A DNA stretch of 64,000 nt from Malacoraja senta. Lineage: Eukaryota. The position numbers were made by a program, and so were the translations under genes. Under the pieces are notes generated by a model. That model saw only the letters and a program-made list of their open reading frames with translations, had not been told where the DNA came from and did not search any database. The stretch is from positions 26,724,001 to 26,788,000 of the forward strand of contig CM075988.1 in the NCBI GenBank assembly GCA_038087875.1. The letters run 5' to 3'. Of this stretch, positions 10,404-47,316 are shown in pieces. Every line of letters starts with the position of its first letter. The first letter of the stretch is position 1.

Positions 10404-10684
10404 TCAGGAGTGTTGCCAGACGGACCACAGAATGCTGAGGATGATGACGTAGACCGCGACCACCAGCAGGTACACACGATAGAGGAGGACATCCAACACG
10501 TATCCCACCTCCAGCCACTCCTTGGCGATGTCCCTGAACCGTTCCCGCTTCTCCAGGAACTGGCGGATGGCTGACACCTCGTGCAGGATACTGTCCACTC
10601 CTTGCAGCGAGTCTGACAGGGGCGGTCCTGGCTCATCGGACACGTCGCATGGTGCTCCATTCCTGCAGCCAATCTGCTCCACTG
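10404..10684 (-). CDS. HTR3A: HTR3A exon 9 (MA helix, M4, stop)
   Basis: Acceptor ttttacctcag; [28 protein letters not shown]...WSVWQHS then TGA at 10406-10404. Confidence 0.95.
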
Positions 10685-19600: not shown

Positions 19601-22600
19601 CAGAGACCCTGGGATGGTGGTGGTGGGGGGGGGTCACAGGTAGAACGTGCAAACTCTACACGGGCAGCACCCGAGGTTGGGATTGGCGCCAGAGCCCTGG
19701 AGCTCTGCATGGTAGCACCAACGGTGTTGTACCAATCCACCTGATTCCTGAAGGAATTGAGTGAATGATGTGGGATTTTACAATGGTCCTGTTGTCCGAT
19801 GGGCTCTGCTACTGATACCAGCTCTACATTACCAATGTATTTGTTAATTGAATTTACATACAGTTAATGACACGATGGGTCTTTGGAGCATGCTAGAGTT
19901 ACATTAGTAGCATTACAGACTGAATCTTCTTTTTATGTCCAGCCAATAATATGAATTGCCTATTTAAAAAAAATATTTCAACACGCTATCTTAATATTTT
20001 TATTGCTCCACAGGACGTTGGCTGGTGGGTTGGAGGGGCTATCGGCAACACGAGGAATGGTGATATGTGGATTTGGAAATAGCTGAGAAGTAACAAATAC
20101 TTAAATATTCTGAGATTTGGGGTAAAAAAAATCAACAGGAAAGTTTAAAAAACAAAACAAATCCAAACTCTTGCTAATAAGAGTTTAGAAATAGGCCAGC
20201 GGATATATTTAAACATGAACTTCTTTGTGTCAGAGTCTGGTACAAGTTGCGTGCGGTTCTTGATTAGTACGGGTATCTGGGGTTATGGGGAGAAGGCAGA
20301 ATGGGGTTAGGAGGGAGAGATCGATCAGCCATGATTGAATGGCGGAGTAGACTTGATGGGCCGAATGGCCGAATTCTGCTCCTTGAACTTATGAACTTGT
20401 ACAAGTTGTATATTTTGGTCTGTGTCACCATCAATAATAAAATATCAGACTTACAATTCATTTATTAAAATGTCCGGCACCCAAATATTTTCGGTGGGAA
20501 TTGATAACTGAATGATGTTGTCAAAATCCTGTGGATCCCACTGCAAGAACTCATCTGTCCAAAACTGTAATGCATTGGAGACAGATCATTAACTAATGTT
20601 TGTACACTCTCTGAAAATATTCCACTTACAAAACAGGACATTGCATATTCTGCTAGAAATAGATTCCCAAATTCAAATAAATTCAAATGTCTTCGATTTT
20701 GCTGAATTTGATTAATAACATCTTCTTGCGTATGGCGTGCACAGCCTAAAGTTGTAGGACAACTTGTTCTATTTGATTGTGCACGCCGGGTTGATTGCAT
20801 TCGTCAAAAAAGGACGGACCACGTGAAGGTTGCAATCTCCCACCCCATTAATAATATCAATGATGCATTAGAATAATTTGGTATCTTTATCTCTGTAAAT
20901 ACAATGTCAATAGAACTAGATATGTTCAAAAAGTGCCGATGTGGCATAAATCTAAAATAATAACAGCAAATGCTGCAGTATCTCAGTGGGCTAGGCAGCA
21001 TCTGGGGGAGAGGACTATGTCAGGCAGCGTCTGTGGAGAGACGACTAGAGGGGAGAGAGGACTAACGTTTCAGGCCATTTACCGTTCATCACAACTCTTC
21101 ACCACTGATCTGAAACGTTTAAGGCCCTGTCCCACTTTCCCGAGCTGCTCACAAATTCTCCCGAGTTTTCCCCTTGATTTGAACTCGGAGAATGTTCGTA
21201 ACGGGGCCGTAGGAGTCCGTGGATATATCGTAGCGGCTTGTTATATCAGCCGTAGTTACTCGGGGCATTAAATGTTGCAATTTTTCTCCTCCCGACTATC
21301 TTTTTACTCATGGACATTTTTTGTCATGCTGGAAAAAGCGTCCCGACTTACCTGATGCCTCGAGTACCCACTGACATAACGAGCCGCTACGATATATCTA
21401 CGGACTCCTACAGCCTCCTACGGGCCCGTTACGAACATTCTCCGAGTATGAATCAAGGGGAAAACTCGGGAGAATTCGTGAGCAGCTTGGGAAAGTGGGA
21501 CAGGGCCTTAACCCTTAACCTGCAGTATTTTCTATCTTACAACTTGATTTTCCATTGATGGGTTTGATGTACAGGTAAGCGTTCCAATATTGGTATCTAT
21601 GGGACATCCTAAACAAATCATTATTAACCAACCTTTTTTATTTTACATTCAATCAAAATCCCCCACTCTTAGTCAAGTCTGTGCAATTAATGTCTTACCT
21701 GTCGGTACCAGATATATGTGGTTAGAACTTGGTTTTTCTCATCCTGCAATTAGATAAAGCAATCCATTAACCAATGATCATTTGTAATTGTTGAGGATAT
21801 GGAATAATCACACTCTATGGACTGTGTGCGTGTGTCAGTGTGCGTGTGTCAGTGTGCGTGTGTCAGTGTGCGTGTGTCAGTGTGCGTGTGTCAGTGTGCG
21901 TGTGTCAGTGTGTGTGTGTGTCAGTCTGTGTGTGTCAGTGTGCGTGTGTCAGTGTGCGTGTGTCAGTGTGCGTGTGTCAGTGTGCGTGTCTGTGTGTGTC
22001 AGTCTGTGTGTGTCAGTCTGTGTGTGTCTCTGTCTCTCTGTCTGTGAGTGCACATATGAAGGAGTCTTGTCTTTCAGCAAAGAATGATGAGTGGGCCATT
22101 CAACCCTTTGTGACTGTTCCATCACTCAGTCTCATTGCTTGATCTCCATTTAATGAATTTTTGTCCTTAATTTAATTTTTTAAAATATTAAATAGTACAG
22201 GCGCGTGGGGGTTCAGGCGCGTGGGGGTTTGGGCATGTGGGGGTTTGGGCATGTGGGGTTCAGGCACGAGGGCCAAGTTGGGTTGCTTTGCTATGAAGCA
22301 AAGAAGTTGCTCTCATTGGCAGAGGTGTGAATGTTGAGCCCAGACCGCCCACGGCTACCTACCACGTTTAGGATGGCGTACACCATCAAGTCGATGGCCA
22401 CTGTTGTTGTTCTCCTCCAGTCCCGCACTGGACGGACTGCCTTGGAGTAGTTGGCCATTAGATAGTTAGAAAGCTCCAGGGTTGTAGAATGATTTCCCAT
22501 TGTCTGCACTGAAAATTATGGTGAAAATGCATTATAAACTAAAATAATTTGCAATAACCTAAAATGGTAGAAAGGTACTCAGTTGGGGAATGGATTGCTC

Positions 22601-25146
22601 TGCTAACAGGCATAGTCTCAAGGGGCAGACTGGCCTTCTTCTAGGTCATAAAGAAGTTACTGGGGAAAAAAGTCTTACATTTAGAATTTGGAAGCGGCGT
22701 GGAAACAGGTCCTTCGGCCCACCGAGTCCCTGCCGACCAGTGATCACCCATACACCCAGAGAGTTGTGAATCTGTGGAATTCTCTGCCACAGAAGGCAGT
22801 GGAGGCCAATTCACTGGATGTTTTCAAGAGGGATTTAGCTCTTAGGGCTAACGGAATCAAGGGAGATGAGGAAAAAGCAGGAACGGAGTACTGATTTTGG
22901 ATGACCAGCCATGATCACATTGAATGGCGGTGCTGGCTGGAGGGGCCGAATGGCCTCCTCCTGCACCTATTGTCTATGTTTCTTTCCTGCACACCAGGGA
23001 CAATTTACAGAAGCCAAAAGCCTGCAAACCTGCACATCTTTGGAATGTGGGAAGAAACTGGAGCACCCTGAGAAAACCCACGCGGTCACAGGGAGAACGT
23101 ACCAACTCCGTACAGGCAGCACCCATGGTCAAGGTAGAACCTAGGTCTCTTGTGCTGTGAGGCAGCAGCTCTACTCACCGTGCCACCATGCCCCCCTAAA
23201 GGACGTTTCTAGAAGTCATTTTGTGTCCTTTTCAATTCTCAATGAAAGACTGTTGTGTAATCTAGACATTGTTGTAATACAGGAGGCAAAGCCAATTTGT
23301 ATAAACCAAAGAGACACAAAATGCTGGAGTAACTCAGCGGGACAGGCAGCATCTCTGGAGAGAAGGAATGGGTGACGTTTCGGGTCGAGACCCTTCTTCA
23401 GTCTATATAGCAAGTTCTCACACATATCAATGTCCAGCAATAACTAAATAATTGATTGTATCGGTCATAAACATAGATTTTTATCCAAAGTCGCTGGTAT
23501 TAAACACTCATACACTGTAGCAACTGTATTGTACACTGTTTCCAAACTTCAGTTCTATTTCTAACACACACTTCATTTTGTGTTTATTTAACATCTGTCG
23601 TCAATGTTGCAACTCCTTGTTTATTTTATTCACTATTTAATTCTTGAGGACTGAGGATCATAAACGATAGAGAGGTCACTTCATGTCATTAATTGAGCCA
23701 TCCAATGAATCCCACCGCCACGTCTTTGCCACGTAGCTCCGTCATATTAGTGACCTTTAAGCACTCACGCAATTCCTTTTCCAAAGTTTATCTTGAATTT
23801 GCTGTGATTGCCCTTTCAGGCAGAACATTTCAGACACCATCACCTCTGGTAAAACGATGGCTCTCGTTCCACTCAATCTCAATATTTTTCCACAGGTTTG
23901 TGGCGCTGGTTGTGCAGGTTTATTTAGAAGTCTATTTATCTTTCATTATTTAGTGACCATATCTGCCACAGTATCTCTGAAGCTGGAGTTTTAAAAATTA
24001 TTTTTGACACAAGATCAGCTAAAGTGGAAGGAAATAAAATTATTGTAATTTTGCAAAAATAATAATGGAATAAGTGAAGGTAGACAACAAATGCTGGAGA
24101 AACTCAGCGGGTGAGGCAGCACCTATGGAGAGAAGGAATAGGCAACGACGAGAGAAGTAATCGCCTATTCCTTCTCTCCATAGATGCTGCCTCACCCGCT
24201 GAGTTTCTCCAGCATTTTTTGTCTACCTTCAATTTTTGCAGCATCTGCAGTTCTTTCTTAAACAATGGAATAAGTGACTTCAAAGTGCTAGAAGTTAACT
24301 CCTGACACAGTTTAGAGACACACTTTAGAGAGAGTGTGAAAACAGGCCCTTGGGTCCACTGAGTCCACACCAACCAGCAATCGCCCCATGCAATAACAGT
24401 ATCCTACACACTTTACCGAAGCCAATTAACCTACAAACCTGCACGTCTTTGGAATGTGGGGAAAACTGGAGCACCCGGAGAAAACCATGCGGTCACAGGG
24501 AGAATGTACAAACTCCGTACAGACAGCACCCATAGTCAGGATTAAACCTGGGTCCCTGGCGCTGTGAGGCAGCAACTCTACCGCTGCACCACCGTGCCGC
24601 ACATTCTCCATAAATGAATAGGGTGGCCGAGGACCAGACGATGAAGAATAGCTTCTCGAGGAAGCTTTCAGAACGTGATTCAAAGTATCAGCTTTAAGGA
24701 TCATCTCCTGAAATGCATCAAAGATATCACAGGAAGGAACTGACGAGCTTACTTCTTGAAAAACTACTTCCATCCTGATAGAAAACATGATTGTATGTCG
24801 GTTGTTGGCTTTTATCAGGTAACTCCACCAACGACCAATGACAGCAAAATCTGTGTGAATTTTAGATTATGCATTGGATCTTGACACAAGTTGATCACCT
24901 TGGTTCATATTGCCCAGTATAGTGACATATTGGCTTCAGCAGGGCAGCAATTTATATTACAAGACCTATCTCAAGGTACAAGCTCGATACTGTACCAAAG
25001 AAGAGATGGGGGTGGGATGGAAGTTTGAGAGAGACAGTCATCTACATACACAAGTTCACAAGAGCAACAAAGATCAACCTACCTCCAGAAGAGAGCAAAG
25101 CATTGAGAACTATGGGCACAACTGCCCAGGATATGTGGAAGCTCAT
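10404..25146 (-). CDS. HTR3A: 5-hydroxytryptamine receptor 3A, 9 coding exons, 468 aa: join(25146-25083, 22508-22363, 21743-21699, 20564-20455, 18906-18737, 16446-16277, 15165-14955, 14651-14442, 10684-10404)
   Basis: All introns GT-AG with compatible phases; total 1407 nt. Signal peptide, [15 protein letters not shown], Cys-loop [16 protein letters not shown]2 [34 protein letters not shown] helix IRQFLEKR and M4 are all 5-HT3A-diagnostic. Confidence 0.96.
11480..11690 (-). mobile_element. Old, decayed Deu-domain-like SINE remnant
   Basis: Motifs resemble the DeuSINE/SacSINE central domain (AGTGCC..., CATCCACCTGA, TTGGTTT, GGCACCT); recognised by eye only. Confidence 0.4.
12240..12470 (-). 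mobile_element. tRNA-derived SINE (HE1/V-SINE-like), decayed
   Basis: CACAGGGAGAACGTGCAAACTCCAGACAGACAGCA ... GCTGTGAGGCAG shared with the other copies. Confidence 0.7.
12527..13605 (+). mobile_element. CR1-clade LINE (HER1-like), 5'-truncated, RT C-terminal half; antisense in HTR3A intron 8
   Basis: [26 protein letters not shown] (FADD variant), one in-frame TAG at 12770, then a 244-aa ORF with [14 protein letters not shown] and [11 protein letters not shown]; 3' UTR and A-rich tail. Confidence 0.95.
14442..14651 (-). CDS. HTR3A: HTR3A exon 8 (M3 and start of intracellular loop)
   Basis: 210 nt, phase 1-1; [30 protein letters not shown]; donor gtaagt. Confidence 0.95.
14955..15165 (-). CDS. 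HTR3A: HTR3A exon 7 (M1-M2)
   Basis: 211 nt; [18 protein letters not shown]...[16 protein letters not shown]...GTPLIG; donor gtgagt. Confidence 0.97.
15222..15520 (-). mobile_element. tRNA-derived SINE (HE1/V-SINE-like), near full length
   Basis: Minus-strand head GTGGCACAGCGGTTAG, B-box-like GGGTTCAATCC, V-domain-like body, (TAAAC)n tail. Confidence 0.85.
16277..16446 (-). CDS. HTR3A: HTR3A exon 6 (loops F and C)
   Basis: 170 nt, phase 1-0; [30 protein letters not shown]...YAEMRFY; donor gtaagt. Confidence 0.95.
16467..16638. repeat. 25-bp minisatellite, about 7 copies (CCATTGCAGCACCAATATCAGAACA)
   Basis: Units at 16467, 16492 and onward; near-identical copies. Confidence 0.95.
17225..17780 (+). 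mobile_element. Old CR1-type LINE 3' fragment
   Basis: Decayed CACTTGGAATATTGTGCGCAGTTCTGG (HLEYCxQFW) and downstream CR1 3' motifs. Confidence 0.8.
18737..18906 (-). CDS. HTR3A: HTR3A exon 5 (loop E, Cys-loop, loop B)
   Basis: 170 nt, phase 2-1; [14 protein letters not shown]...[25 protein letters not shown]; donor gtaagt. Confidence 0.97.
18955..19160. mobile_element. Palindromic (inverted-repeat) Penelope-derived element
   Basis: Arm AGACACAAAAAGCTGGAGTAACTCAGCGGGACAGGCAGCATCTCTGGAGAGAAGGA followed by its reverse complement. Confidence 0.8.
20455..20564 (-). CDS. HTR3A: HTR3A exon 4 (loop A)
   Basis: 110 nt; [37 protein letters not shown]; cag acceptor, gtaagt donor; not in the ORF track. 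Confidence 0.96.
20721..20846 (-). mobile_element. Short retroposon (SINE-like) with HDV-like ribozyme head, copy 2
   Basis: TSD ATTAATAA(C/T)ATC at about 20711-20722 and 20847-20858; (AAG)n tail; near-identical to 7101-7222. Confidence 0.85.
20793..20846 (-). ncRNA. Minimal HDV-like ribozyme motif (predicted fold, activity untested)
   Basis: P1 GGGGUGG/CCGUCCU, P2 GAUUGCA/UGCAAUC, P3 ACC/GGU, L3 UUCACGU, J4/2 C-GAA in the canonical nested order; G1 coincides with the element boundary. Confidence 0.7.
21123..21507. mobile_element. MITE / non-autonomous DNA transposon with ~150-bp terminal inverted repeats
   Basis: Starts GGCCCTGTCCCACTTTCCCGAGCTGCTCAC, ends GTGAGCAGCTTGGGAAAGTGGGACAGGGCC; TTAA on both sides (21119-21122, 21508-21511). 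Confidence 0.92.
21699..21743 (-). CDS. HTR3A: HTR3A exon 3 (loop D)
   Basis: 45 nt, [15 protein letters not shown]; gcag acceptor, gtaaga donor. Confidence 0.97.
21823..22045. repeat. 14-bp (GTGTGCGTGTGTCA)n / TG-rich tandem repeat
   Basis: Direct reading. Confidence 0.95.
22199..22268. repeat. Short ~15-bp G-rich tandem repeat (GGCGCGTGGGGGTTCA-like), about 4 copies
   Basis: Direct reading. Confidence 0.8.
22363..22508 (-). CDS. HTR3A: HTR3A exon 2
   Basis: 146 nt, phase 1-0; [37 protein letters not shown]; donor gtaggt. Confidence 0.94.
22690..23192. mobile_element. HE1-like SINE (minus) interrupted by a CR1 3' fragment (plus, about 22752-22980)
   Basis: SINE tail 22690-22750 and head 22990-23192 flank a [15 protein letters not shown]1 end. 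Confidence 0.75.
24075..24265. mobile_element. Palindromic Penelope-derived element, flanked by direct repeat AATGGAATAAGTGA
   Basis: Inverted arms AATGCTGGAGAAACTCAGCGGGTGAGGCAGCA and TGCTGCCTCACCCGCTGAGTTTCTCCAGCATT; AATGGAATAAGTGA at about 24064 and 24264. Confidence 0.8.
24330..24600 (-). mobile_element. tRNA-derived SINE (HE1/V-SINE-like)
   Basis: Minus-strand head GCGGCACGGTGGTGCAGCGGTAGAGTTGCTGCCTCACAGCGCCAGGGACCC. Confidence 0.85.
25083..25146 (-). CDS. HTR3A: HTR3A exon 1 coding part (signal peptide [21 protein letters not shown])
   Basis: ATG context gtcaacATGA, hydrophobic core, phase-1 donor G|gtaggt matching exon 2; best candidate found between exon 2 and HTR3B. Confidence 0.8.
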
Positions 25147-30625: not shown

Positions 30626-30909
30626 TTAGGGGTAGCTCCATATCAGCCAGAGGGTGGTCATGGTAAGAGTGTAACCTGCAAGGACCACCAGATACACGAG
30701 GAACAGGAAGCGATCGAGTCTGTAACAGAACGCCAACCATTCATTCTTGGGATTGCTGTCCACATCCAGATTGTGAAGGCAGAGCATGATTGAAGAGATC
30801 TCCTCCTGTAGCTCTTCCAGCGGCAACCTCCTGCGCTGGAGACCGCGGCTCTCTGTCTCCAGATGCTCCTCTTCCTGCTGGACGCCAGCTTCAGGGTCAC
30901 TCACAGAAA
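30626..30909 (-). CDS. HTR3B: HTR3B exon 9 (MA helix, M4, stop)
   Basis: EEISSIMLCLHNLDVDSNPKNEWLAFCYRLDRFLFLVYLV...LWLIWSYP stop; phase-1 acceptor aag at 30911-30910 after a pyrimidine tract. Confidence 0.85.
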
Positions 30910-33900
30910 CTTTACCAAGAGGAGACATAACAGGAACAGACGTAAGTCCTTAAGCTATTCAATTACAACGTTGCTAATCTCTATCTTAACTCCATTGGTC
31001 TGAGTAACTAAGATCTGTCAAATTCACTTCTGAAACGTTCAATTGCAATGCGGTCTCAGCGGCCGTCTGTGGTGGGACCTCACCCCCATGGAATGAAGGA
31101 GTCCTTCCTCACACCATCACTAAACACTGCAGAAATTGTAGATCTGAAATGAAAACAGAAAATGGTGGAAGCACCCAGCGGGTCAGGTGGCAACATGTGT
31201 GGAGAGAGAATGGGGAAAATGTTTCAGTTCAATGATGTTCACTGGATGGAGAAAAAGTAGAATTGGGACATGTATTAACTTGTGGGGGGGGGGGGGGCAG
31301 TAGAATCGGGACATGTATTAACTTGGGGGGGGGCAGTAGAATTGGGACATGTATTAACTTGGGGGGGGGGCAGTAGAATTGGGACATGTATTAACTTGAG
31401 GGGGAGGGGCAGTAGAATCGGGACATGTATTAACTTGGGGCGGAGGCTGGGGGAGAGGGGGAGTAGAATTGGGACATGTATTAACTTGAGGGGAAGGGGC
31501 AGTAGAATCGGGACATGTATTCACTTAGGGGGGGGTAGAATTGGGACATGTATTAACTTGGGGCGGGGCTGGGGGGGAAGGTTGCTGAAGTATGTGTGAA
31601 TCGTGCATGTTGGGATCAGGGGCAGGGTGGTGTTTCACATCCTGGCCTTTGATGGGGAGCTTGGACAGTCATTGGTTGGGGGTTCACTCTGTTTCTGTCT
31701 CTGCGGATGCTGCCTCGAAGGGCCGAAGGGCCTGCTCCTGCACCTATTGTCTATTGCCTGGCCCACTGTGTGTTTCCAGCATTTCCTGGATTTGTTTTAG
31801 CTTCTCAGCATCTGATTTTCAATTCATGGTCTGCTTTTCTCTTTCCCACAGATGCTGTCTTGTCTGCTGTACAAACCTCATATTATCCTTAACTTCAGAT
31901 ATCCAGCAAGCAATGTGTTCTGGATCACACACTTCCTGCATTCTTTTATTCATTAGTTTTTCTCTCTTTTCTGCATCTATGTACATGTGCTCTGGGCAAA
32001 TCAGTTGCTATCTTCAAGACTTGAACCCTCTCTCTCAGTTGATACCAACATGTACCATCCAACCTTGATCTTCAGTTGATTCCAGATATTCCACTTAAGG
32101 AATGATGCCCGGTAAAAATGGTGGCGGAAGGAATGTTGCCACCTCTGACCTTTGCAGAAGAAAGGTGCCACTGCTGGCAACTAGTATGGAAAGGGAACTG
32201 ACCAGGATGAGAATGTTCTCTAAAGCATGGCTCCTTACGCCTACCATCACTGTTCCTTCCTCTGGTCTCCAGCGATGGGCACGGGCTCTCACTGGTGCTC
32301 TGGCGGGAGAGGCAGCTGTTGGCCTTAAAGCAGATTGGTTCTGCATCCTCATTCATGTTCACAAGCTGTACGATAAAGATGGACTCAGCTAAGCTGATGA
32401 CGAGCAGAGCCATGCAGACAGCAAAGAACACGCCTGTGGAAGAGCAGATCACCATAATGGTCACCTCAACAGACCAGGGCATGACTACCACACTTACATC
32501 TAACATTGTATGTATTCATGTTCTCTGCTGGCACACATCACATACTGTTCTGAATACAAACAGATGTCAAGGCACCCGATTATGTCCATTATTTATTCTT
32601 TAATCATTATGTTTTGATTGGATTATCCTCTTGGTTGAAGCTTACTGTATGCAAATCATTATTACAATAATAAATAACAATTCAGAAATACTTTATAAAT
32701 ACAAAGCAATGTCTTTGTTCATGCTAACACTATTTCCCTTTCTCCGCATGGTTCAAGCTAACTTGTTCATATTCAATTCAATAGTTTTTATCATGACATG
32801 TACCGAGGTACAGTGAAATTCTTTTCACTAGGTAAATACAATCCCAGATTAAGTACAAAGTGTGGAGAAACTGAGACCGTACACAAGAGTCGGCAGGTTT
32901 TAGACATTTGCAAAGTCCAAACTTGCCGTAAAGGCCGGTTGCAGCTGCCACCTCACGGTTTATTTTGGATTAAAGGCTGAGAGATCGAGACGGAGTGGGA
33001 GATTGTCTGGAGAAGTGTAACGGTGGGGCTGGGAATAGAATGTGCTTTGTCATGGAACAGGCGGGTGGAATGGAGGGTGGGGGTGGATCTCATCAGTAAA
33101 CACATCCACCTTTAGGCCTATACTCGGCAGCAATCTAAGGCCAGTGAATCACAGTCATTTCACTAACCACAAGTAGCCCTTGCATTCCTCTCTTTCTCTC
33201 TCTCTCTCTTGGTCCCTCCCCCACCCTAGCTATCCTGCTAGTTTCACTGATCATATTCCCCTCGTTATCACCTCCTCCACAGCCAACAATGGACCATTGT
33301 GGGCTCCTTAGCCATATGTGCCAGCTGTGATTTGTTCTGTACATTTTCTTACTTCTAGTTTCCCTCTCCCCTGACTCTGTCTGAAGAAGGGTCTCGACCT
33401 GAAGCGTCACCTATTCCTTCTCTCCAGAGATGCTGCCTGATCCGCTGAGTTACTCCAGCACTTTGTGTCAATCTTCAGTATTTCTTACATTGTATTGAAA
33501 TAAAGCCACATGGCCTTCAATATTTTTTCCAACCTGCTTCCTGGGAGCAGATTATTTGCCCACACTCATTAAGCAACAGCACCAGCAGTTTGAGGCATGA
33601 CGTTTTTACCTTATCCAGCCCCAACATCCATCTTCAGAGCATTAAAACAACCCAGTTTCTTTTCAGAAATGCGACTCAATCTGCTGAATGTATTTTTCAG
33701 TATTTCATCCACTCATTTCACCCCATCATTAGAAGTTAATTTGAACCAAGGTGTCAGAAATAGAGCATTAAAAATTAGCCCTGTAGCAAGGTCCTTCTGA
33801 TTGTAGCTGTCTAGTGTTATTTAGTTCCCAATGTTGATACTAAGCTCAATACAGGGGCAATGTGGGGATGATTAGATGCTGTCCCTGGCAGTGACTCTGA

Positions 33901-36900
33901 AACAACTATCCTCCACTAACCGCATTTACTGGAAGTTACTCTGCTTTTATCGGGAGAAGTTGTTGTAATTCCTCCACTATTTAAAATGAGCAAATTTACT
34001 TAGAATATTTCCAACTGATAGTTGAGAATAATGATGCTGTTGTCAATAAAGATGCAATTATTTTAAGTTGATGAAAGAGCATCTTACCGATGAGTGGAGT
34101 GTGCAGGGAAGTGATGGCGAGCTCATTGTGGAGGTTGATGCGGAACACTGTGTATCCCAGCAAGGTGCTGGATTTGAACGTTATTCTGCCGCTGCTGTTT
34201 GGAGGCAGGAAGTAGCTGGTCACATCGACCAGCATCAGGAACATGCTGGGCAGCAGCAAACTGACCACGTGGAGCAACGGTCTCCGTCTTATTACAATCT
34301 GCAAAAAGCAAACCACTTTTGAGGAACGTCTCGACCCGAAAGGTCACCCGTTCTTTCTCTCCAGAGATGCTGCCTGTCCCGCTGAGTTACTCCAGCATTT
34401 GGTGTCTAAAAGCAAACTGCTGCTACATTCCAGTTATTTTATCAGTCCTCTTCAAAGTTAAGTGGTGAGTTTAGGGCATTGATGGGTAAGAGTGGGGGAG
34501 ATATGCTGAAATATTTGCCCAGATGACCAGAGAATTCACTCTTTAATGAATCATATCCCACCACCTCCTCCCCAGCATCAGGGGAACGTGGAATTAAATC
34601 CCATTAAGACTTTGGGGGAATTTAGGTCCAAAAAGGACTCGCTCAGGGTTACGTAGGAAGGAAGTGCAGATGCTGGTTTAAACCGAAGATGGATACAAAA
34701 AGCTGGAGTAACTCAACGGGTCAGGCAGCATCTTTGGAGAAAAAGAATAGGTGACATTTTGGGTCATGACCCTTCTTCAGACCGAGAGTCAGGGGAGAGG
34801 GAAATGAGAGATATAGACGGTGATATAGATAGATCTATCATTTCCTTTCCCCTGATAGCCTGAAGAATGTTTGATGCATTGGGAATATTTTTTAATATCC
34901 TATGAAACTGACATAAAGATGTCTGCATCATATTTTCGGATTCATTGTGTCTGTAGATTTAGAGTGATCTCGACGATCGACTTACGTTAAACTGAATCTG
35001 AGCGTAGTCATCACCTTCGCCGTGCAACCTTTGGTATGTGGAAGGGACAGAGAGAAGCTCCCACTCACTGTCACCTAAAAACGCCCTGGTGTCATTCTCA
35101 ACCTCCGCAAGACTTCTCCAAAACTTGAGGTTGACATCATTTACTGTCATAAAGCAAAGAGAAAGGGAGCAATATCACTTCATATGGCAATATTGTTATT
35201 ATTCATTCATGGGACTTTAGACAATAAAACCTAGGTGGAATATTATGGGAGAGTGTAATAGAGGAGAAGGCAGGAGAATGGGGTTTGGAGGGAGAGATAG
35301 ATCAGCCATGATTGAATGGCAGAGTATGGCCTAATTCTACCCCTATTCCTTACGACCTTAGAAGGCCATTTGGCCCATCGGGTCTGCACCGCCATTCAGT
35401 CATGGCTGATCTACTTTTCTCTCTCAACCCCTTCTCCCCATAACATTTGACAATAGTTTGTTTTGGTCCCTTTTATAAGGGAACAGAATTGCTCCGGATG
35501 CATCTTACTGAATGCTTTATGTCTGAGGGGGATTTAAAAATTATAAAGGTTTTGATAAACTAAAGTAGCAATATTCACGGGTCAGTGATCTGGTAACTAG
35601 AAGGTAACATTGCTTGGGAGTTTAGGGGAGTTCTGATTAGGATTAGAACTCAGAAATATGGAGGAAGCAGAATCTATTATACTTTTTTAAAGGAGAAATA
35701 GAAAACTAAATGAGAAAAGAGGGAGCAGAGCAGGAAGATGTTTGGGAAATTACACCAGAGAATGGGATCATGTCTACAGTTCTGTCAGCTAGATGGCTCC
35801 GACACACAATGGACATCTTGTGAATTGTAAAACAGGTGGAGTACATTCACCCGCTGATGCCCACCTCAATAATAACAAATACACTCTCAGCTCCACTTCT
35901 GAAATTCAGTTCCATTGCTGTCAATGGAATTGAATCTTAGGAGCAGAGATCAAAGCACCAAAGTGACTTTGACCACAAACCAGCCATGAATCTCTCCCCT
36001 GGATGTTCTTCTCCAAAGATTTGTTACACAGCTGAAGAGAAATTGATGCAGAACTGTAAATTATGTTAGCAGAAGTATGAAATGCTTCCAGTAAAGACTA
36101 GAGAGACAAGGAAAAGCAGATAAATTTCTTGCTGAAAACAACCCCCCTGCATGCGGTGACTTTGTGGTCCTTCTCTCTTCTCATGTGTCCTGCATAATAT
36201 AATCACCACCCCTCAGACAGTCACAGGCCACTTCTGTAAAAGATGTCTCCATTAACTTGTCTTGATCATTTACCATCCAAAGCACTTATGTTGTAACCAA
36301 ATCCATATTGCAATGTAAGTGGATAACAGCCACGCGTTGGTAATTGGCGGAGGGGAAAGGATTCATGGCCGGGACAAGTAGGCTGTTACAAAGGACATAA
36401 CTGCTGCACATAGAAAGAGACAATCAAGTTAAGCTTTGAGTGCTTGACTTTATTTCTTCTTTCCCTGTGCAATCATTTTCATTTTTTTAGAAGCGTTTAA
36501 CTGACACTATGTTCCAGATTTATATTGGAGATTTAAATAACACACTCACTCTATACTGACAATCTTCACAATTCACAATTCCCAACAGGGTCAGGGAAGG
36601 CACGGGGGTTAAAATCGATCCCCAGATCTCTCCTGCCCACAATTACAATTATTGAAAGGGTAAAAAAATACCTGATGCTGAAACACAGTTTAACTATTTT
36701 AATTACCTCTCCCATTATCTGTCCATGAACTGCCCCAGAATGCAGGCTTATAACAATTTTATGAACCCAACACTATTATTCCAGATCCTTCCAAAAGCTC
36801 CCATGTTGTTTACAGATAGCAGATGTAGGAAGTGTTTGCACAGTTACAATTTAAACCTACTCTAGATCCTTTCCCTTCAACCCTTGCTACCAAAGAACAT

Positions 36901-39900
36901 CGTTTCATCCATCATGTCTTTCTCCTGCCTGTCCAGCATCGTTTTATTATCCCACCAACTTGATGCTCGGCAGACAGAAAGAGAGGCATCTGAAGAAGGA
37001 TCTCGACCTGAAACGTCACCCATTCCTTCTCTCCAGAGATGCTGCCTGTCCCGCTGAGTTACTCCTGCATTTTGTGTCTATCTAAAGTTAGAGGGAAATG
37101 GATTCTGAAATGCAAATAAAGCAGGGAAAGGAAAACAGAAGGGGCTGTTTTATTAAGCTGGAAGAGATTAAGGGGTAATAGTGTGAAATAATGTCGAGAG
37201 GAAGTGAAAATATGGATGGAGTATAGAGTGATAGAGTCTTACAGTGTGGAAACTGGCTCTTTAGCCCAATTTACCCACACCGGCCAACATGTCCTAGTTA
37301 CACTGGTCCCAACTGCCTGCATTTGGCCCATATCCCTCTAAACCTGTCCTAGCCATGCACCTGTTGAACTGTTTCCAAGCTTGGTCATTGTACCATCCAC
37401 ACTACTGATTCCACCCAGTACTAGCCCTGCAGATGTTTGCGGTGCTGAACAACTGTGCAGATGTTTATGATGTTGAACAGACATGCAGATGTTGATGGTG
37501 TTGACCAGGTGTATAATGGCCAGGTGCTTCTCTCTGCCCACCTGTGTGCATCCAGCTGCCAAAGGTGAAGCTGCAGTTCTGTTGATCAAAGGGGAAGGCG
37601 TAAATCTTCAGGTTACAGGCAGAGACCACTTGCATCGGCTTGTAGTTTTTAACCACTCCAGAGGCGTTCACATACACGTAGGGCAGGTGGGGCGAGTTGC
37701 CGATGTCGATACTGCAAGCGGAAAATACCGGCACTTGTTTAACCGTCAACAAACCTAAAGTGAACAATTGCGATTGTTGGCAAATTCCTAGCATGCAAAG
37801 TTTGCAAAGTAAAATATTCCAAGGCAAAACCTGCGAGATGAAATATAATTTGAGACTCAATGTGGACCCTTAATCCAGGCACTGAGAGTAAAATAGACAG
37901 AGGTTCATCCTCATGAAGGTTAGAATCTGTTATTAAAATGTACAGGCCATACAGAATAAATCTAACAACAAGATTTATTGGCATAGGTTCGTCATTGAGA
38001 TGCAGTGCATTGGAACAGTAGACCCCCCCTCTACCCCCCCCCATCCTCCCCCCCTACCCCCCTCCACCCCACCCTCCACTCCCTTCCCCCCGCCAGACGG
38101 TGGGGCCCAGGCACTTCAGTCGTGGCTGAGTGAGTTCCAGGCATGTTCCAGTGATCAGACTGCACAATGCTTCTGTGTGTTACCTTGCCAGTGTGGCAAC
38201 AACAGATGTTTAATACCTTCAGATGTGGCATGAAACAAGGTTCCATCGATGCTCTGCGGTGGATGCAGAAGCTCAAACTTGTGCTAGTTTGAAAAAGAGA
38301 TGTTGAGTTGGGTTTATTGTCACCTGTACCGAGGTACAGTGAAAAGCTTTAGTTGGGGAGAAGTTCTCCCCAATGCTGTGATATTTGTCCCACACACACA
38401 CACACACAATGGCCTTGTCTCCATGATGCTTGTGGGAAGTTGCTTTGCACAATTTGCTGCGGTTCCTCCAGTACAATATGATTGTGTCCACTCAGTGCTT
38501 TGAGGTGTTCTGAGGAAGTTCCGCAGGGTTTTGCTTTGGATAATAGACAAATATATTTGATGAAAATCAAAGTTCTCTCATCTACTGCTAAGAACACATG
38601 GTTTATGCCAATTACTTACAATTCTTGAATGATTATGTCAGGGATCCAGATAGCTTCAACAGGCAGAGAAATTTCATTGATCTGGTCAAAATGTGTTGGG
38701 TTCCACACGAGGTAGTCATCCATCCATAGCTGCAAGAGTGAAAGGAGGCTGTGTGTGAGATTGCCTGTTTATACCCATGTTCTTTAACTCCGACCATGCA
38801 TGAACATTGGCAATAGAACGGTGTTGATGTCTAAATTCAATAAAAAGGAACTGCAGATGCTGGTTTATCCCAAAGATAGACACAAAATGCTGGAGTGACT
38901 CAGCGGGTCAGGCAGCATCTCTGGAGAACATGTCTGAAGAAGTCCTGACCCGAAATGTCACCTATCCATTTTCTCCAGAGATGCTGCATGATAGACACAA
39001 TACTCCAGCATTTTGTGTCTATCTTTCAGCCCAAATTCAAGATTGCACAGATGAGAGTTGAGCCGGTGAAACAAGTCAAGAACTTAAAGGAGCTTAAAGG
39101 AAACTACATGTCCTTTACGCTCTTAACTTTAATGGTTCAACCTTTATGTTCCTGTCCGTTCTAGGGTCGTTCAAGTGTTATTGTTGCTACCTTTGATCTC
39201 CAGGCGATTTGTGGAATGGTTGACTGCTGTGCTTTGTTGTTAATGGGGGCTTTTGCTAAAATGAGCAGCAGAGTTCTCAGCTCGTTAAGTAACAGTTGGT
39301 CCTCATTACACTGGGACTGTGTGCAGAAATGTCAGTAGAATAAGTTGACAAAATGTACCAATGATCCAGGAATGGTATAGAAGAAAATTCCATTCTCTCT
39401 GCACTCAATCATCCTTCACTTCAGTCCACTAATTTTCAAATGCATTTTGAGATGGGGCTGGAAGCACAGTGGAAGCATGGTGGCACAGCGGTAGAGTTGC
39501 TGCCTTACAGCGCCTGAGACCCGGGTTCCATCCTAGGTACGGGTGCTGTCTGTACTGAGTTTATACATTCACCCTGTGACCACGTGGGTTTTCTCCAGTC
39601 TCCTCCACATTTCAAAGATATGCAAGTTTGTAGGTTAATTGGCTTCTGTAAATTGTTCCTAGTGAGTGGGATAGAACTGGTGTACGGGGATCGCTGGTCG
39701 GCTTGGACTCGATGGGCTGGAATGTCTGTTTCCAGGCTGTATCGCTAAACTAAACTAAACAGGTCATAAAATACTAGCTCCTACTATGCTGTGGGCAGGT
39801 ATTTGTCCAGATTGACAGTATCCTCAGTGTAACTGCTGAGAACTGGTCTGTACTTCCATCTCACCAGACCAGCACTCCAAACAGTGATTTAACACATAGA

Positions 39901-42900
39901 CACAATCGTTAAACCAGATCCCCCTCGGTATCTGCTTGGCCTCCAGAAAACTAATTTTAATTGGGTGTCTTTGGTTATTTAATAAAAGATGTTGCAGACT
40001 GTTCACAGTTCTGTGGGTTTCTGACATGGAATGGGAACTTTGTTTTTCTTCACACAGGTACTTCTGCTGCCCAGTGTTTTCACCATTCTCTGGTTTTATT
40101 TCAGTTCCAGCATCAGCAATTTTTTTTTTTTGTCTTCACCAATATCAATCACTCCTATTTTGGCACCTCATCCTTGAACTGCCTGATATTCTAGGGGGAT
40201 GAACTTGGTAAGTATAAATAAAATAATTAAATTAAAGAAAGAAAATTTGGTTATGAATAAAACCGGGTAAAAATCTAATATTCTCCGGTAATAAAAAACA
40301 TATCGTTTAGTTTAGTTTAGTTCATTCAAGTCAAGTCAAGTCACATTTATTTATATAGCACATTTAAAAAACAACTCTCGTTGGCCAAAGTGCTTTACAT
40401 TTGTTATAAGAATAATATAAACAAACAAACTACATACATATATACATATATACGCTCAGAGGACGTCAAGAAAAGCTTGGGAGTATAGATACGTTTTTAG
40501 TCTTGACTTAAAGGAGTCGATGGAGGGGGCAGTTCTGATGGGAAGGGGGATGCTGTTCCACAGTCTAGGGGCTGCAACCGCAAAGGCGCGGTCGCCCCTG
40601 AGCTTATGCCTAGACCGTGGGATATTCAGCAACCCCAAGTCGGCCGATCTGAGGGACCTGGAGGTGGAGTGGTGGGTGAGCAGACTTTTAATGTAGGTGG
40701 GGGCAAGCCCATTGAGGGCTTTGTAGACACAGAGGAGGATCTTGAAATGTATACGGAACCGCACAGGGAGCCAGTGGAGATAGGCCAGGATCGGGGTGAT
40801 GTGGTCCCTTTTTCGGGTGCCCGTCAGGAGTCTCGCTGCGGCGTTTTGGACCAGTTGCAGGTGGGACAGGGAAGATTGGCTGATGCCAGTGTAAAGGGAG
40901 TTGCAGTAATCTAGGCGGGAGGAGATAACTGCAACTCATTGTCATGTGTACCGAGGTACAGTGAAAAGCTTTTGTGACATAGATACAGACATAGTGTGCT
41001 CACCAACACACTAACCAATAGGGCTATTCCCCTGTCCCTGTAGATGTCATAATACTGGGAAACGTACACTAGTATATTTGTGTATTTGGTGCCATAAACC
41101 TGTGACATACTGCTGTAAGCAGCTATAACTTAGCTAAGGTAGGAGGGTAATATGGTGAACACGTTGACAATGACTGGTTCTAGACATACCTGCCGGTACC
41201 AGACACTAGTGGTCAACTTCTGGTTTTGGCCATCCTGAAAGGTAATAAAGAAAAAAATATTTGTGAATAACAAAGTTAATACATGTTCGTTCATTTTGAT
41301 GCAGATTTGTAAGCATGTTTGTGAATATTAGATGAATAATTGGTTGTTTTTACTGGGCTATTTTAGCATCTCAATCGTTAACTGTTGACGATTGTTAACA
41401 GTTAACGATTAACTATGAACTAACTTTGAACTAACTTTGTCAGAGCTGTGTAAATGAGATATTCACCCTGTGTAGTAAAGACAAGATTGAAAGTCTGGTC
41501 TCACACACCAGTGTTGAACTGAGGAAACATTTCACCAAGAGAGCACTTCCTGTTACACAAAGAATCAAACCACATTCACACAATAATTCCTGCTTCTCCT
41601 TGGAGTCATGACCAACATTCACCCCTCAACCAACAGAATTAAAACTCTGTTAGATATTTGACTATTTTGTTTTACACGACAATGAGATTATTTCAAAGGT
41701 GCAGCGGCAGGCAGTACATAGGACAGTTCCGTACGTTTGTAACTTTGTGGCACCAACATGTGATGACACTTGTGTACTCCCTACACTAGGTTGTGTACAA
41801 AACCAAGCTTTCCACTGTGCCTCAGTTCCCTGGATACATGTGACAAGAAAGAAAGTCCTCCGCTCAGTTCGCTTTAACCAACCTGACCTCCCGGTGGCTC
41901 AGCACTTCAACTCCCCCTCCCATTCCAAATCCAACCTTTCTGTCCTGGGCCTCCTCCATGGCCAGAGTGAGTCCCACCGCAAATTGGAGGAGCAGCACCT
42001 CATATTTCGCTTGGGTAGTTTACACCCCAGCGGTATGAACATTGACTTCTCCAATTTCAGGTAGTCCTTGCTTTCTCCCTCCTTCCCCTCCCATTCCCAG
42101 CTCTCCCACAGCCCACTGTCTCCGCCTCTTCCTTTCTTCTTCCCACCCCCCCCCCCCACCCCCACATCAGTCTGAAGAAGGGTCTTGACCCGAAACGTCA
42201 CCAATTCCTTTGCTCCATAGATGCTGCCTCACCCGCTGAGTTTCTCCAGCATTTTTGTCTACCTTCCATTTTTCCAGCATCTGCAGTTCTTTCTTAAACA
42301 GAAAGTATCATTCATTCAACATACTTCATTGGATATGAAAACTTGCTACATCCTTGATTAAAAGGTTTGAATAAATCTGCCTGGTTTTCTCCCAAGCAGC
42401 CCTTAATCCATGCAGTATTCTACCAAATTTACAGCATGATCTTGTTTTAAATGTTAGATTAAACAATAACCCCCACATATGAATATGTATGTTAGTGTGA
42501 ATAGTTTACCACATCAAGCACAGCATGAAGGATAAAGTCAATATAAATGGTAGTGGGCTGGGTCCAGTTTTTTACTGGTCGGATGCCTTTGTCATAGTTC
42601 AGCAGTAGTGTCTCTGTTAGATGATGTACTGTTGAATTCTGCACTGATGCACCAGAGCCAACACCACCTGTAAGGAAGAGAACAAGTTAAAATAATCACC
42701 CACAAAACTGTTGGGGTGATGGGATTTCCATTTTACATACAATACCATAGTTAACTATGATGGCACAGTGGCGCAGCTGGTAGAGCTGATGCCTTATTGC
42801 GCCAGGGACCTGAGTTTGGTCCTGACATTGGGTGCTGTCTGTGCAGAGTTTGCGTGTTCTCCCTGGAACCATGTGGGCTTCCTCCCACATCCAAAGCCAT

Positions 42901-45631
42901 GCAGGCTGGTCAGTCATTTGGCCTCTGTAAGCTGTGGTCAATGTGTCGGGGGTGGATGAGAAAGTGGGATAACAAAGAAACACAGAGTCAGAGAGCACAA
43001 AATCGGGACCTTTGGCCCATGCCAGCCAAGATGCCCCATCTAGGATGGTACGCATGTGGAACAAGCTGCCAGAGGAGGTAGTTGAGCCAAGTACTATAAC
43101 AAAATGTAAAAGACATTTGGACAGGTACATGGATAGGAAATGTTAAGAGGGATATGGACCAAACGTGGGTGAATGGGACTGTCTTAGATGGGGCATCTTG
43201 CTTGGCATGGATGAGTTGGGAAGAGGGCCTGTTTCCATGCTGGATGACTCTGTGATTCTTAACAGGGGTATTTTATTTTAAGTACAGAGAGGATGGATAC
43301 ATACGCTTGACTCCCTGATCGGCACAAAGCAGCTGCAACATATTGCCCTCCACTTTCAAAGTTCAATGACAATGAATCATGGAAATGATGCATGATATGT
43401 GGTCACTGCCATGAAGTGCATTTAGCACCACCACCACTTATTGTAGGTGAATCCTTCAAGCCACCGACAGCCTCCTGCTCCTACCACCAATAGAAGTTGA
43501 TATTCCTTTTTATTGCGGCAATACATTTTGCTTTCAACTCCTTGGACGATCTTGCCGGCCCCATTTGTGATCATGTTAATTATATCTGTTGATGGTAATG
43601 GCATAACCCTTGTATTAGATTCCCATTATAAGGGCCATCTCATTCTAAAACAATTTTCAGTGCTTATTCCCATAGCACAATGGATTGTTAATGGCTGTGT
43701 GTTAAGAGCCTGATTTCCAAAGTAATTATGTCTCTAAAGGCCTCTTTTTGAAAAGGCATTTACCTTGCAAACGATCCCTGTGGAGATTTTCCACTTGGTA
43801 ATTAATGCTCAGATTATGGAGTTGTAGAACTGTGTAGAATTTGCCGGTAGGGAAGGATAACATGGAAAGGCAACTTTTTCTTAACGTTTTAGTTCCTTTG
43901 TCTTGAAGCATTCACCTGTCAATAATTACATTGATAGATGAACATCACCTATTTTAAAAACTCACGCACTATCTTTCAGACAAACGTATCAAGAAATATA
44001 AGGCCCAATGTTTTAAACAACACGACACAGGGGTGTGTCATCATAGGAAGTTGGATTAATGATGTTGAATATAAGTAATGGTTTGATAAAATTGCTCCTG
44101 TAGTGTTTAAGGTTATTAAAATAACTAGCGTGCACAATGATGTGAGCAGTGAGTTTTCAGGCATCATTTCAAACACAGTTTTTCAGAGGCTCCTGGTTTG
44201 TGCTGCTTTATGATCAGCCATTCTGCATGTTATTCAATAGAAGGTAGACAAAAATGCTGGAGAAACTCAGCGGGTGAGGCAGCATCTATGGAGCGAAGGA
44301 ATAGGCAACGTTTTGGGTCGAGACCCTTCTTCAGACTCAATATAGTTCAGTATCAATGAGGAATGAGTTGGTCGATGGGACCCAACAGGAAGGATTCAAC
44401 CCAGACGATGAAAGTAGCAGACGTGATTCATACTTAAGAGGTAAATTTAGAAGAGCAATTATTACAGTCGATCTAATAAAATAGGGAAAGAAAGAAAGGT
44501 TTTGATAATTGCATTTTAACTGGAAGAGACGAGTTTGTAAAAACAAAATTGTTGGGATTAGTTACTCAAACATTTTAGGTCAGGAATTGAATCAAAGATT
44601 CAGCATTCCTACTTATTGGTCAAACTGGAAGTATTATTCTTGTAAGGATCAAAAAGAGATACTATCGACTAATACACTGCACTACACTACAGTACATACA
44701 CTAATATATCACTGAAACAGTCCAGCTTCTTGTACTGGCCAAAAAGAGAAGGCTGAAAATAACATGTAAGATAAATACAGAAATAGTTCAAAAGCCATCC
44801 TTGGACTTTAACATCTTGTTGCCTGAAGTAGATACAGGTAACCAAATATAAAATACTTACTGTTAAAATTATATTCATTTATTTGAGATAAGGAATTGAG
44901 TTCCCCATAAACGGTAACGAGTTTGACTCCACATTCGTGTGTTTTTGTAGTTACTAAACCATTTTCATTATCGATGTGAATGCATAAAATCCATTTCTTT
45001 CAACAGAGCTAATTTATAAGCACCCATTCCATCAACATTAAAGATTGTAGAAACATATCACTGTGAATTGCTTCTGCTGTGGGGTGGATAATAGAACCAT
45101 AGAATAAAACTTTAGTTACATCATTTTACACCTAGATAATGCCAAATGCTCATCATCTATTCAGTTAAGAAAATGAAAACTATTCTTAAAATATCTCAGT
45201 ATTTTGTTAAATATATTTAAGCTCCTAAGTCATTTCAGTTCTGAAGAAGGGTCTCAACCCGAAACGTTGCCCATTCCTTCTCTCCAGAGATGTGGCCTGT
45301 CCGGCTGAGTTTCTCCAGCATTTTGTGTCTATCTTCATTTCAGTTCTGAAGACTCAGCGGGTCAGACAGCATCTCTGGAGAAAAGGAATAGGTGACTTTT
45401 CGGGTCGAGGCCCTTCTTCAGACTGAATCAGGGGAAAGGGAAACGAGAGAATATAGACAATGTCAAAAGCCAACGGCAGGGATGTGGAAGCCGACTGCCG
45501 TTTACAATTATTCCAAAATACATCAATCAAATACGTACAAATCCAGTTAGAAAATTCAGAGAGATAATAGAAATGTTTCCTCACGAGACCTTACCTGTAA
45601 TCAGGCCGAAGAGGAACAGAGCCAGTGACAT
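30626..45631 (-). CDS. HTR3B: 5-hydroxytryptamine receptor 3B, 9 coding exons, about 467 aa: join(45631-45595, 42667-42510, 41234-41190, 38729-38620, 37711-37542, 35143-34986, 34298-34088, 32433-32203, 30909-30626)
   Basis: GT-AG introns with consistent phases. 5-HT3B-type features: AFLGDSEWELLSV, AQIQFN, M2 RITFKSSTLLGYTVFRIN, no MA arginines, position directly upstream of HTR3A. Exon 8 donor and exon 9 acceptor are less certain. Confidence 0.92.
31257..31580. repeat. Minisatellite: 26-bp core GTAGAATTGGGACATGTATTAACTTG plus variable G-run linkers, 8 copies
   Basis: Direct reading; lies in HTR3B intron 8. Confidence 0.92.
32203..32433 (-). CDS. HTR3B: HTR3B exon 8 (M3 and intracellular loop); 3' end ambiguous (32245, 32239 or 32203)
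   Basis: Acceptor cttccacag; [25 protein letters not shown]; three in-phase GT donors. Confidence 0.85.
33150..33480 (+). mobile_element. Penelope-like element 3' region
   Basis: CAAGTAGCCCTTGCATTCC...CAGCCAACAATGGACCATTGTGGGCTCC...CTGAAGAAGGGTCTCGACCTGAAGCGTC plus family tail. Confidence 0.75.
34088..34298 (-). CDS. HTR3B: HTR3B exon 7 (M1-M2)
   Basis: 211 nt; IVIRRRPLLHVVSLLLPSMFLMLVD...TPLIG; donor gtaaga. Confidence 0.96.
34986..35143 (-). CDS. HTR3B: HTR3B exon 6
   Basis: 158 nt, phase 1-0; NDVNLKFWRS...DSEWELLSV...YAQIQFN; donor gtaagt. Confidence 0.95.
37542..37711 (-). CDS. HTR3B: HTR3B exon 5 (Cys-loop)
   Basis: 170 nt; IDIGNSPHLPYVYVNASG...CNLKIYAFPFDQQNCSFTFGSWMHT. Confidence 0.96.
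38620..38729 (-). CDS. HTR3B: HTR3B exon 4
   Basis: 110 nt; LWMDDYLVWNPTHFDQINEISLPVEAIWIPDIIIQEF; donor gtaagt; not in the ORF track. Confidence 0.95.
39475..39760 (+). mobile_element. tRNA-derived SINE (HE1/V-SINE-like), full length
   Basis: A-box-like TGGCACAGCGG, B-box-like GGGTTCCATCC, V-domain-like body, (TAAAC)n tail. Confidence 0.88.
40327..40935 (-). mobile_element. L2-clade LINE 3' fragment
   Basis: FRIHFKILLCVYKALNGLAPTY...RSLRS...GDRAFAVAAPRLWNSIP...FKSRLKTYLY; (CTTGA)n tail; TCATT TSD at 40322-40326 and 40936-40940. Confidence 0.92.
41190..41234 (-). CDS. HTR3B: HTR3B exon 3
   Basis: 45 nt, DGQNQKLTTSVWYRQ; tttcag acceptor, gtatgt donor. Confidence 0.95.
41858..42300 (+). mobile_element. 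Penelope-like retroelement 3' end (GIY-YIG endonuclease C-terminus plus 3' region)
   Basis: DLPVAQHFNSPSH...RKLEEQHLIFRLGSLHPSGMN, stop at 42064, then hammerhead-like core at 42172-42199. Confidence 0.88.
42510..42667 (-). CDS. HTR3B: HTR3B exon 2
   Basis: 158 nt, phase 1-0; GGVGSGASVQNSTVHHLTETLLLNYDKGIRPVKNWTQPTTIYIDFILHAVLDV; acceptor cttccttacag. Confidence 0.94.
42759..43255 (+). mobile_element. HE1-like SINE followed by a CR1 3' fragment
   Basis: GGCACAGTGGCGCAGCTGGTAGAG head; CR1 tail from about 43045. Confidence 0.75.
45595..45631 (-). CDS. HTR3B: HTR3B exon 1 coding part (MSLALFLFGLIT)
   Basis: ATG, hydrophobic signal core, strong phase-1 donor CAG|gtaagg matching exon 2. Confidence 0.82.
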
Positions 45632-47061: not shown

Positions 47062-47316
47062 GTGAATGGTCACATAGTGAATGGCCACATAGTGAATGGC
47101 CACATAGTGAATGGTCACATAGTGAATGGTCACATAGGGAATGGCCACATAGGGAATGGCCACATAGGGAATGGCCACATAGGGAATGGCCACATAGTGA
47201 ATGGCCACATAGTGAATGGCCACATAGTGAATGGCCACATAGTGAATGGCCACATAGTGAATGGCCACATAGTGAATGGCCACATAGTGAATGGCCACAT
47301 AGTGAATGGCCACAGG
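47062..47316. repeat. 15-bp minisatellite, about 17 copies (GTGAATGGCCACATA), embedded in a decayed SINE
   Basis: Direct reading; flanks CACCCAGAGGAA and CACAGGGAGCATGTGTACACTCC are contiguous SINE sequence. Confidence 0.95.

Follow-up and report, generated by a model that had tools for sequence, protein, structure and literature searches.

The 64,000-nucleotide stretch of the genome of the skate Malacoraja senta analyzed in this work (contig CM075988.1, positions 26,724,001 to 26,788,000; hereafter the window) holds the usual tandem of HTR3B and HTR3A, the genes for the B and A subunits of the serotonin (5-hydroxytryptamine, 5-HT) receptor 5-HT3, with HTR3B upstream and HTR3A as its presumed partner. 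HTR3B lies on the minus strand and comprises nine coding exons, from an ATG at 45631 to a stop codon at 30626, all with AG/GT borders (Table 1). With the exon 8 donor at 32239, its product has 455 amino acids without internal stops and aligns gap-free, at 96% identity, with the annotated HTR3B of Amblyraja (P0214); a second in-frame donor of the same exon, after 32203, yields a product of 467 amino acids that aligns equally gap-free with the longer annotated skate isoform (P0213), the difference between the two forms being confined to the intracellular loop. The Cys-loop receptor domains PF02931 and PF02932 were matched by Pfam on the 96%-identical relative P0214, and the Cys-loop and the transmembrane segments are present in the translation from the window. 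A 2,023-base contig of a relative (run X1, whose RNA nature is only the tool's guess) joins exons 5, 6, 7, 8 and 9 in order, and in a second contig (run X4) exons 2 and 5 are separated by 155 bases, which is the length of exons 3 and 4 together; for these contigs we used the table of matching pieces, the depth table being dominated by repeats. Because of this full 455-residue open reading frame, its identity to Amblyraja HTR3B and the joined exons 5 to 9, the binding-site motifs discussed below are not chance matches. HTR3B of the window is an ordinary gene, already annotated in relatives, and its interest is comparative rather than specific to this genome.

The original prediction had proposed that a 5-HT3B subunit encoded at 34986–41234 keeps agonist-binding residues that human 5-HT3B lacks and may contribute to ligand sites. 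All the motifs on which it relied are found at their sites on the minus strand, within spliced exons with GT-AG borders: SVWYRQ in loop D, IIQEF in loop A (spanning exons 4 and 5), YVYV..NYKP in loop E (exon 5), FGSWMHT in loop B, with the tryptophan codon TGG exactly where it had been read, and DDYAQ in loop C. The human counterparts cited for comparison (FKSILHT, SVWYQE and GGFAQ) all occur in the human protein (P0186), and the equivalent of F226 is leucine, as stated (residues are numbered after mouse 5-HT3A, via a skate relative, Rhinoraja P0005, that aligns without gaps to mouse 5-HT3A PDB chains). The region delimited does lie in HTR3B but covers only exons 3 to 6 of the gene. Likewise, the residues named as retained are present, but they are a selective list: E236, N128 and T181 are not kept, and R92 is kept by mouse B as well. 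The change at F226 had been flagged but not that at E236, which is visible in the very motif DDYAQ, and the complementary face, which makes the better case for a contribution to ligand sites, had not been singled out.

Table 1. Features of the window (residue numbers after mouse 5-HT3A).
Feature	Position	Strand	Remarks
HTR3B exon 1	45595..45631	-	ATG at 45631, start of signal peptide; matches N-terminus of Rhinoraja P0005
HTR3B exon 2	42510..42667	-	Equivalents of D69 (42539-42537) and I71 (42533-42531); Y73 equivalent is His; piece in relative's contig, run X4
HTR3B exon 3, loop D SVWYRQ	41190..41234	-	W90 41201-41199; R92 41195-41193
HTR3B exon 4, loop A	38620..38729	-	N128 equivalent is Gln (38627-38625); E129 38624-38622; piece in relative's contig, run X2
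HTR3B exon 5, loop E and Cys-loop	37542..37711	-	Y141, Y143, Y153 (37644-37642), K154
HTR3B exon 5, loop B FGSWMHT	37542..37711	-	T181 equivalent is Gly (37560-37558); S182; W183 TGG 37554-37552; H185
HTR3B exon 6, loop F	34986..35143	-	W195, R196, E200, D204
HTR3B exon 6, loop C DDYAQ	34986..35143	-	F226 to Leu, TTG 35027-35025; Y234 35006-35004; E236 to Gln 35000-34998
HTR3B exon 7	34088..34298	-	M1, M2 and start of M3; B-type pore with Gly at -1' and Arg at 15'
HTR3B exon 8	32239..32433	-	M3 and intracellular loop; relative's contig ends at 32239
HTR3B exon 9, coding part	30626..30909	-	MA helix with Leu/Ser/Asn replacing the A-type basic triplet; M4; stop
HTR3A	10404..25146	-	Nine exons, intact; about 5.5 kb downstream of HTR3B, same strand
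HTR3A exons 1-5	25146-25083, 22508-22363, 21743-21699, 20564-20455, 18906-18737	-	
HTR3A exons 6-9	16446-16277, 15165-14955, 14651-14442, 10684-10404	-	
Retroelement remnant	57065-58486	-	Reverse-transcriptase-like; Pfam RVT_1 match
Retroelement remnant	53605-55480	+	Reverse-transcriptase-like
Retroelement remnant	12494-13504	+	Reverse-transcriptase-like
Retroelement remnant	40456-40935	-	Reverse-transcriptase-like
Tandem array	47062-47314		15 bp x 17, 97% matches
Tandem array	50640-51347		17 bp x 41, C-rich
Tandem array	45-612		28 bp x 20

Our phylogenetic analysis bears out the assignment to HTR3B. Of the 231 sequences assembled, 69 were placed in a tree (357 columns, intracellular loop trimmed). 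All 51 B sequences form one split in it, apart from HTR3A and C-like subunits, with a Shimodaira-Hasegawa-like approximate likelihood ratio test (SH-aLRT) support of 100 and a FastTree support of 1.0, and the gene from the window is nested among skate HTR3B (SH-aLRT 100); the best of its named relatives are skates. Within B, tetrapods (97.9), salamander plus frogs (97.8) and amniotes (99.7) are also recovered; these are SH-type supports on an IQ-TREE interim tree, read as splits, and not bootstrap values. Pore and intracellular segments are of B type too: glutamate at -1' is absent and arginine at 15' present in all B sequences, and the MA (membrane-associated) helix of skate HTR3B has Leu/Ser/Asn at the positions where skate A has Arg/Arg/Lys.

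We compared the two faces of the subunit with the serotonin contacts described in simulations of the mouse A receptor (PMC7655109), namely N128, T181, W183, F226, Y234 and E236 on the principal (plus) side, where I228 was left out of the count as the tip of loop C is not alignable, and D69, I71, W90, R92, Y153, R196 and E200 on the complementary (minus) side. Skate B has seven of seven complementary contacts and only two of six principal ones, W183 and Y234, the others being replaced (N128Q, T181G, F226L, E236Q); by its residues it thus has the makings of a complementary subunit and not those of a principal one. The count of two of six principal contacts recurs in 17/17 chondrichthyans and 61/64 ray-finned fishes, complete A sequences having five or six. 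Human and mouse B have four of seven complementary contacts and one of six principal ones. Among gap-free sequences, the mean number of complementary contacts out of seven is 6.5 in chondrichthyans (n=17), 6.2 in ray-finned fishes (n=61), 5.7 in frogs (n=17), 5.1 in reptiles (n=14) and 3.7 in eutherians (n=78). Skate B also has E129, S182 and H185. Its loop C is short, ten residues separating the position of F226 from that of E236, as in all 51 B sequences of the tree set; there are 11 in seven of eight A sequences and 14 in skate A. As to the weight of single residues, the amine of serotonin is described as held by E236 and T181 via water, and its ring as contacted by F226 (PMC7655109), and the largest effect reported in mouse A is that of W156Y (W183 in our numbering), which raises the concentration giving a half-maximal effect (EC50) from 2.7 to 306 uM, with values of 43, 20 and 14 uM for Y126F, Y207F and R65A, respectively (PMC6642186). 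Mouse B (P0199) has arginine at R92, the R65 of those studies, which PMC7655109 states to be exclusive to A among mouse and human subunits.

The distribution of these residues was followed in 208 B sequences, one per genus. They were gathered by searching three times for homologues and once among representatives and by consulting three clusters, and were kept by hand after dropping isoforms and duplicates: 17 chondrichthyans, the window among them, 65 ray-finned fishes, one lungfish, one salamander, 17 frogs and 107 amniotes (22 reptiles, platypus, 6 marsupials and 78 eutherians). Tryptophan occupies the W183 position in 81 of the 83 fish sequences, the exceptions being leucine in Ictalurus and Engraulis (P0070, P0281), and in the salamander Pleurodeles (1/1); it is replaced by cysteine in 17/17 frogs and by isoleucine, valine, alanine or methionine in 107/107 amniotes, none of which has it. 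The Y234 position is tyrosine in 82/83 fishes, with a mispredicted fused model as lone exception, phenylalanine in the salamander and in all 17 frogs, and tyrosine again in 2 of the 107 amniotes, both crocodilians. The retention of W183 and Y234 is common to fishes generally and not special to this skate. As had been suggested, both residues are ancestral, since HTR3A has them as well (in all complete sequences). Judged from tip states with A as outgroup, and not from a likelihood reconstruction, the simplest reading is that Tyr changed to Phe at Y234 near the base of tetrapods and that the tryptophan of W183 was lost twice, in frogs and in amniotes.

Other candidate markers fared less well. 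R92 had been counted among the differences between this subunit and its human orthologue; as a contrast between fishes and mammals it was rejected, arginine being found in mouse and rat B and in 48/78 eutherians, and glutamine not only in human and the other great apes but also in 7/17 chondrichthyans. On this distribution, its absence from human B is a lineage-specific human loss. W195 was dropped as well, since fish A subunits are devoid of it. Platypus B (P0453) has none of the six core pocket residues and has also lost W90, and lungfish B (P0128) is without W90 and Y153; these deviations, like those of Ictalurus and Engraulis, may be further independent losses or annotation errors. No bird HTR3B was among the matches listed (best 120) despite the presence of crocodilian and turtle sequences, possibly by an effect of ranking only.

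The loss in amniotes does not reflect a general drift of B away from A. Extracellular identity to the majority residue of A is nearly the same in skate (0.53), human (0.54) and mouse B (0.54), and six of the seven other extracellular tryptophans stay at 0.96-1.0 in fish and amniote B alike, so the loss is site-specific. Out of 106 positions invariant in eight A sequences, six (I68, Q93, P104, G134, W183 and Y234) persist in fish B but not in amniote B, and none shows the reverse pattern.

With its mammalian orthologue (human O95264, mouse Q9JHJ5), also encoded by nine exons upstream of HTR3A, skate B shares the lack of the -1' glutamate and of the MA-helix arginine triplet, the 15' arginine, glutamine at E236, a residue other than phenylalanine at F226 and a short loop C. 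Unlike it, skate B keeps W183, Y234, I71, W195 and E200, and has both R92 and Y153, whereas human B has only Y153 and mouse B only R92; by contrast, N128 is lost in skate B and kept in mammals. With 5-HT3A (mouse PDB 6NP0/6BE1; skate HTR3A) it has in common the loop B tryptophan, the loop C tyrosine and the complementary contacts listed for mouse A, and it differs from it by the four principal-face replacements, the shorter loop C and the B-type pore and MA helix.

The T181 position, just ahead of Ser-Trp in loop B, aligns gap-free with the glycine of nicotinic alpha4-like loop B. It is arginine in 65/65 ray-finned fishes (e.g. P0043), cysteine in 13 chondrichthyans and glycine in 4, all of them skates; lysine is seen in human and some other primate B. 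In the nicotinic beta2 and beta4 subunits, an arginine at this position is described as entering the pocket and displacing the loop B tryptophan; these subunits keep both that tryptophan and the loop C tyrosine yet serve as minus face only, and beta3, which has glycine, is still judged accessory (PMC9319688, PMC11965388). Since beta2 and beta4 keep both residues without forming a principal site, Trp plus Tyr is insufficient evidence of one. The Arg-Ser-Trp of ray-finned 5-HT3B, which belongs to a different receptor family, is the same as theirs; the arginine appears to be convergent and, judging by the alignment, probably plugs the B(+) pocket of these fishes; skate B, with glycine, is alpha- and beta3-like at this site. 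A further parallel is offered by nicotinic alpha10, which contributes both faces in chicken but not in rat (PMC8634148); that case was demonstrated experimentally, whereas ours is based on sequence, and the principal-face losses of 5-HT3B begin earlier, in tetrapods, than the mammalian decay of alpha10.

In mammals, B is reported to work only together with A, agonists acting at A-A interfaces, although the human A(+)/B(-) interface does bind VUF10166 and meta-chlorophenylbiguanide (mCPBG) (PMC3504740, PMC3898987, PMC4220016, PMC8584345). The low conductance of A is ascribed to the arginine triplet of the MA helix, the loss of which raises the conductance of AB receptors (reviewed in PMC8584345). 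Against this background, we consider it on balance probable that skate B serves as an accessory subunit whose A(+)/B(-) site works and whose B(+) face is weak. It would co-assemble with the neighbouring A and raise conductance as in mammals; the A(+)/B(-) interface would most likely bind serotonin as a real site, because the minus face of skate B lacks none of the serotonin contacts given for this side in mouse A, and fish heteromers would then have more functional sites than mammalian ones. The B(+) interfaces would most likely be weak or modulatory, because the plus face is devoid of F226, E236, T181 and N128 and its loop C falls one residue short of that in most A. Erosion of the complementary face took place mainly in mammals.

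Several observations weigh against this proposal. A number of contacts does not measure affinity: W90 and R92 are present in mouse B, but binding is reported in reviews solely at A-A. The interface residues Y73, Y88, L126 and S206 differ from A in all B, with a possible change of geometry, and lungfish B has just four of seven complementary contacts. Pocket residues are weakly enriched among the lost positions when the test uses a core of six residues picked after seeing the data (p=0.018), and show no enrichment with a list of 33 pocket positions (p=0.42). The timing of the losses hangs on a single salamander and a single lungfish, the named matches listed include no B of a bird, coelacanth, caecilian or lamprey, and neither electrophysiological nor binding or structural work on any fish B was found in the literature. 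Conversely, the contact count may understate what is left of the principal face: granisetron binding is reported as unchanged in E236C and N128C, E236 possibly acting on assembly (PMC5464333, PMC4220016), and N128Q is described as tolerated for palonosetron.

A possible, if more doubtful, account is that neither face of B forms an agonist site, A-A interfaces alone gate the channel, and W183 and Y234 are kept for fold and packing. The same two residues in beta2 and beta4, the missing enrichment in the 33-position list and the requirement of mammalian AB for the A-A interface speak for it; so does the absence of F226, E236 and the A-type loop C length from fish and tetrapod B alike, which dates the divergence of the pocket before the gnathostome radiation. 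Nevertheless, amniote B folds and assembles without W183 and Y234, yet both are near-invariant in fishes, and purely structural retention leaves unexplained why the complementary face of fish B is as A-like as A itself. Moreover, beta2 and beta4 do act as complementary subunits, and the analogy therefore favours an A(+)/B(-) site.

Seen from the opposite side, fish B could be a true agonist-site subunit at A(+)/B(-), and also at B(+) in the skates with glycine, ray-finned fishes having independently evolved their beta2-like arginine plug; we regard this as unlikely. Still less credit is given to a full serotonin site on the principal face of skate B (B(+)/A(-) and B(+)/B(-)), lost in tetrapods and possibly allowing B-rich or B-only channels. 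Such a site would draw on W183, the residue of largest effect, along with Y234, E129, S182 and H185, on a glycine before Ser-Trp that represents, in place of arginine, the permissive state of nicotinic alpha, on the granisetron binding of the E236C and N128C mutants, and on the precedent of chicken alpha10, which is reported to form homomers when rat alpha10 does not. It would have to do so with two of six principal contacts, after losing the E236 and T181 that hold the amine and the F226 that contacts the ring; moreover, glycine is restricted to four skates against 13 other chondrichthyans with cysteine, nicotinic beta3 shares it and is still described as a poor principal subunit, and all B pores have the 15' arginine and no -1' glutamate. 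Finally, A-type residues would cause no surprise in an A-like paralogue bearing the wrong name or in an artefact of prediction, but this reading of the gene deserves practically no credence. Frogs and lungfish do have A-like paralogues, but full-support nesting within skate HTR3B refutes the idea, and an identity of 41% to the neighbouring A against 96% to annotated B, the B-type pore and the spliced contig of a relative speak against it as well.

The neighbouring gene, with this 41% identity to HTR3B, clusters with HTR3A in the tree, and the B-then-A order is also found in three fused teleost gene predictions (P0002, P0239 and P0240). Skate HTR3A has six of six principal contacts, but only five of seven complementary ones, with leucine and alanine at the W195 and E200 positions; its loop C, encoded in exon 6, is three residues longer than in the seven other A sequences compared. 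Its pharmacology may differ from that of mammalian A. A frog A-like paralogue (P0298, P0301) that adjoins HTR3A in the tree keeps W183 and has asparagine at R92; in Mixophyes and Dendrobates the contig that carries it is equal in length to the HTR3B contig, which hints at a third gene on one scaffold with HTR3B. The window further contains three tandem arrays and four reverse-transcriptase-like retroelement remnants, of which one matched Pfam and two others were scanned and had no Pfam match (Table 1).

In the literature searched, with most subscription journals outside the search, we found no paper that deals with the function of 5-HT3B outside mammals or with its binding residues there. A Metazoa-wide study (PMC9977066) apparently analyzes pocket residues in A only, and its supplements could show the same pattern in B; PMC6354393, PMC12645548, PMC9124788 and bioRxiv 2024.02.23.581731 have little bearing on the question of skate B. 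The rule that agonists act only at A-A in 5-HT3AB rests on human and mouse subunits, for which stoichiometry is disputed. If fish B were a true agonist-site subunit, this rule would be a derived tetrapod or mammalian state reached stepwise, through the loss of Y234, the double loss of W183 and then the erosion of the minus face; for fish 5-HT3AB, other stoichiometries and a different response to setrons would be possible. Vertebrates provide a natural series for testing which residues switch an interface on, from Gly-Ser-Trp in skates, Cys-Ser-Trp in sharks and Arg-Ser-Trp in zebrafish to tryptophan without tyrosine in a salamander, cysteine in frogs and isoleucine in mammals. The question also bears on studies of zebrafish, in which htr3b is reported to be expressed in gill nerve terminals, that use 5-HT3 drugs on the assumption of mammalian pharmacology.

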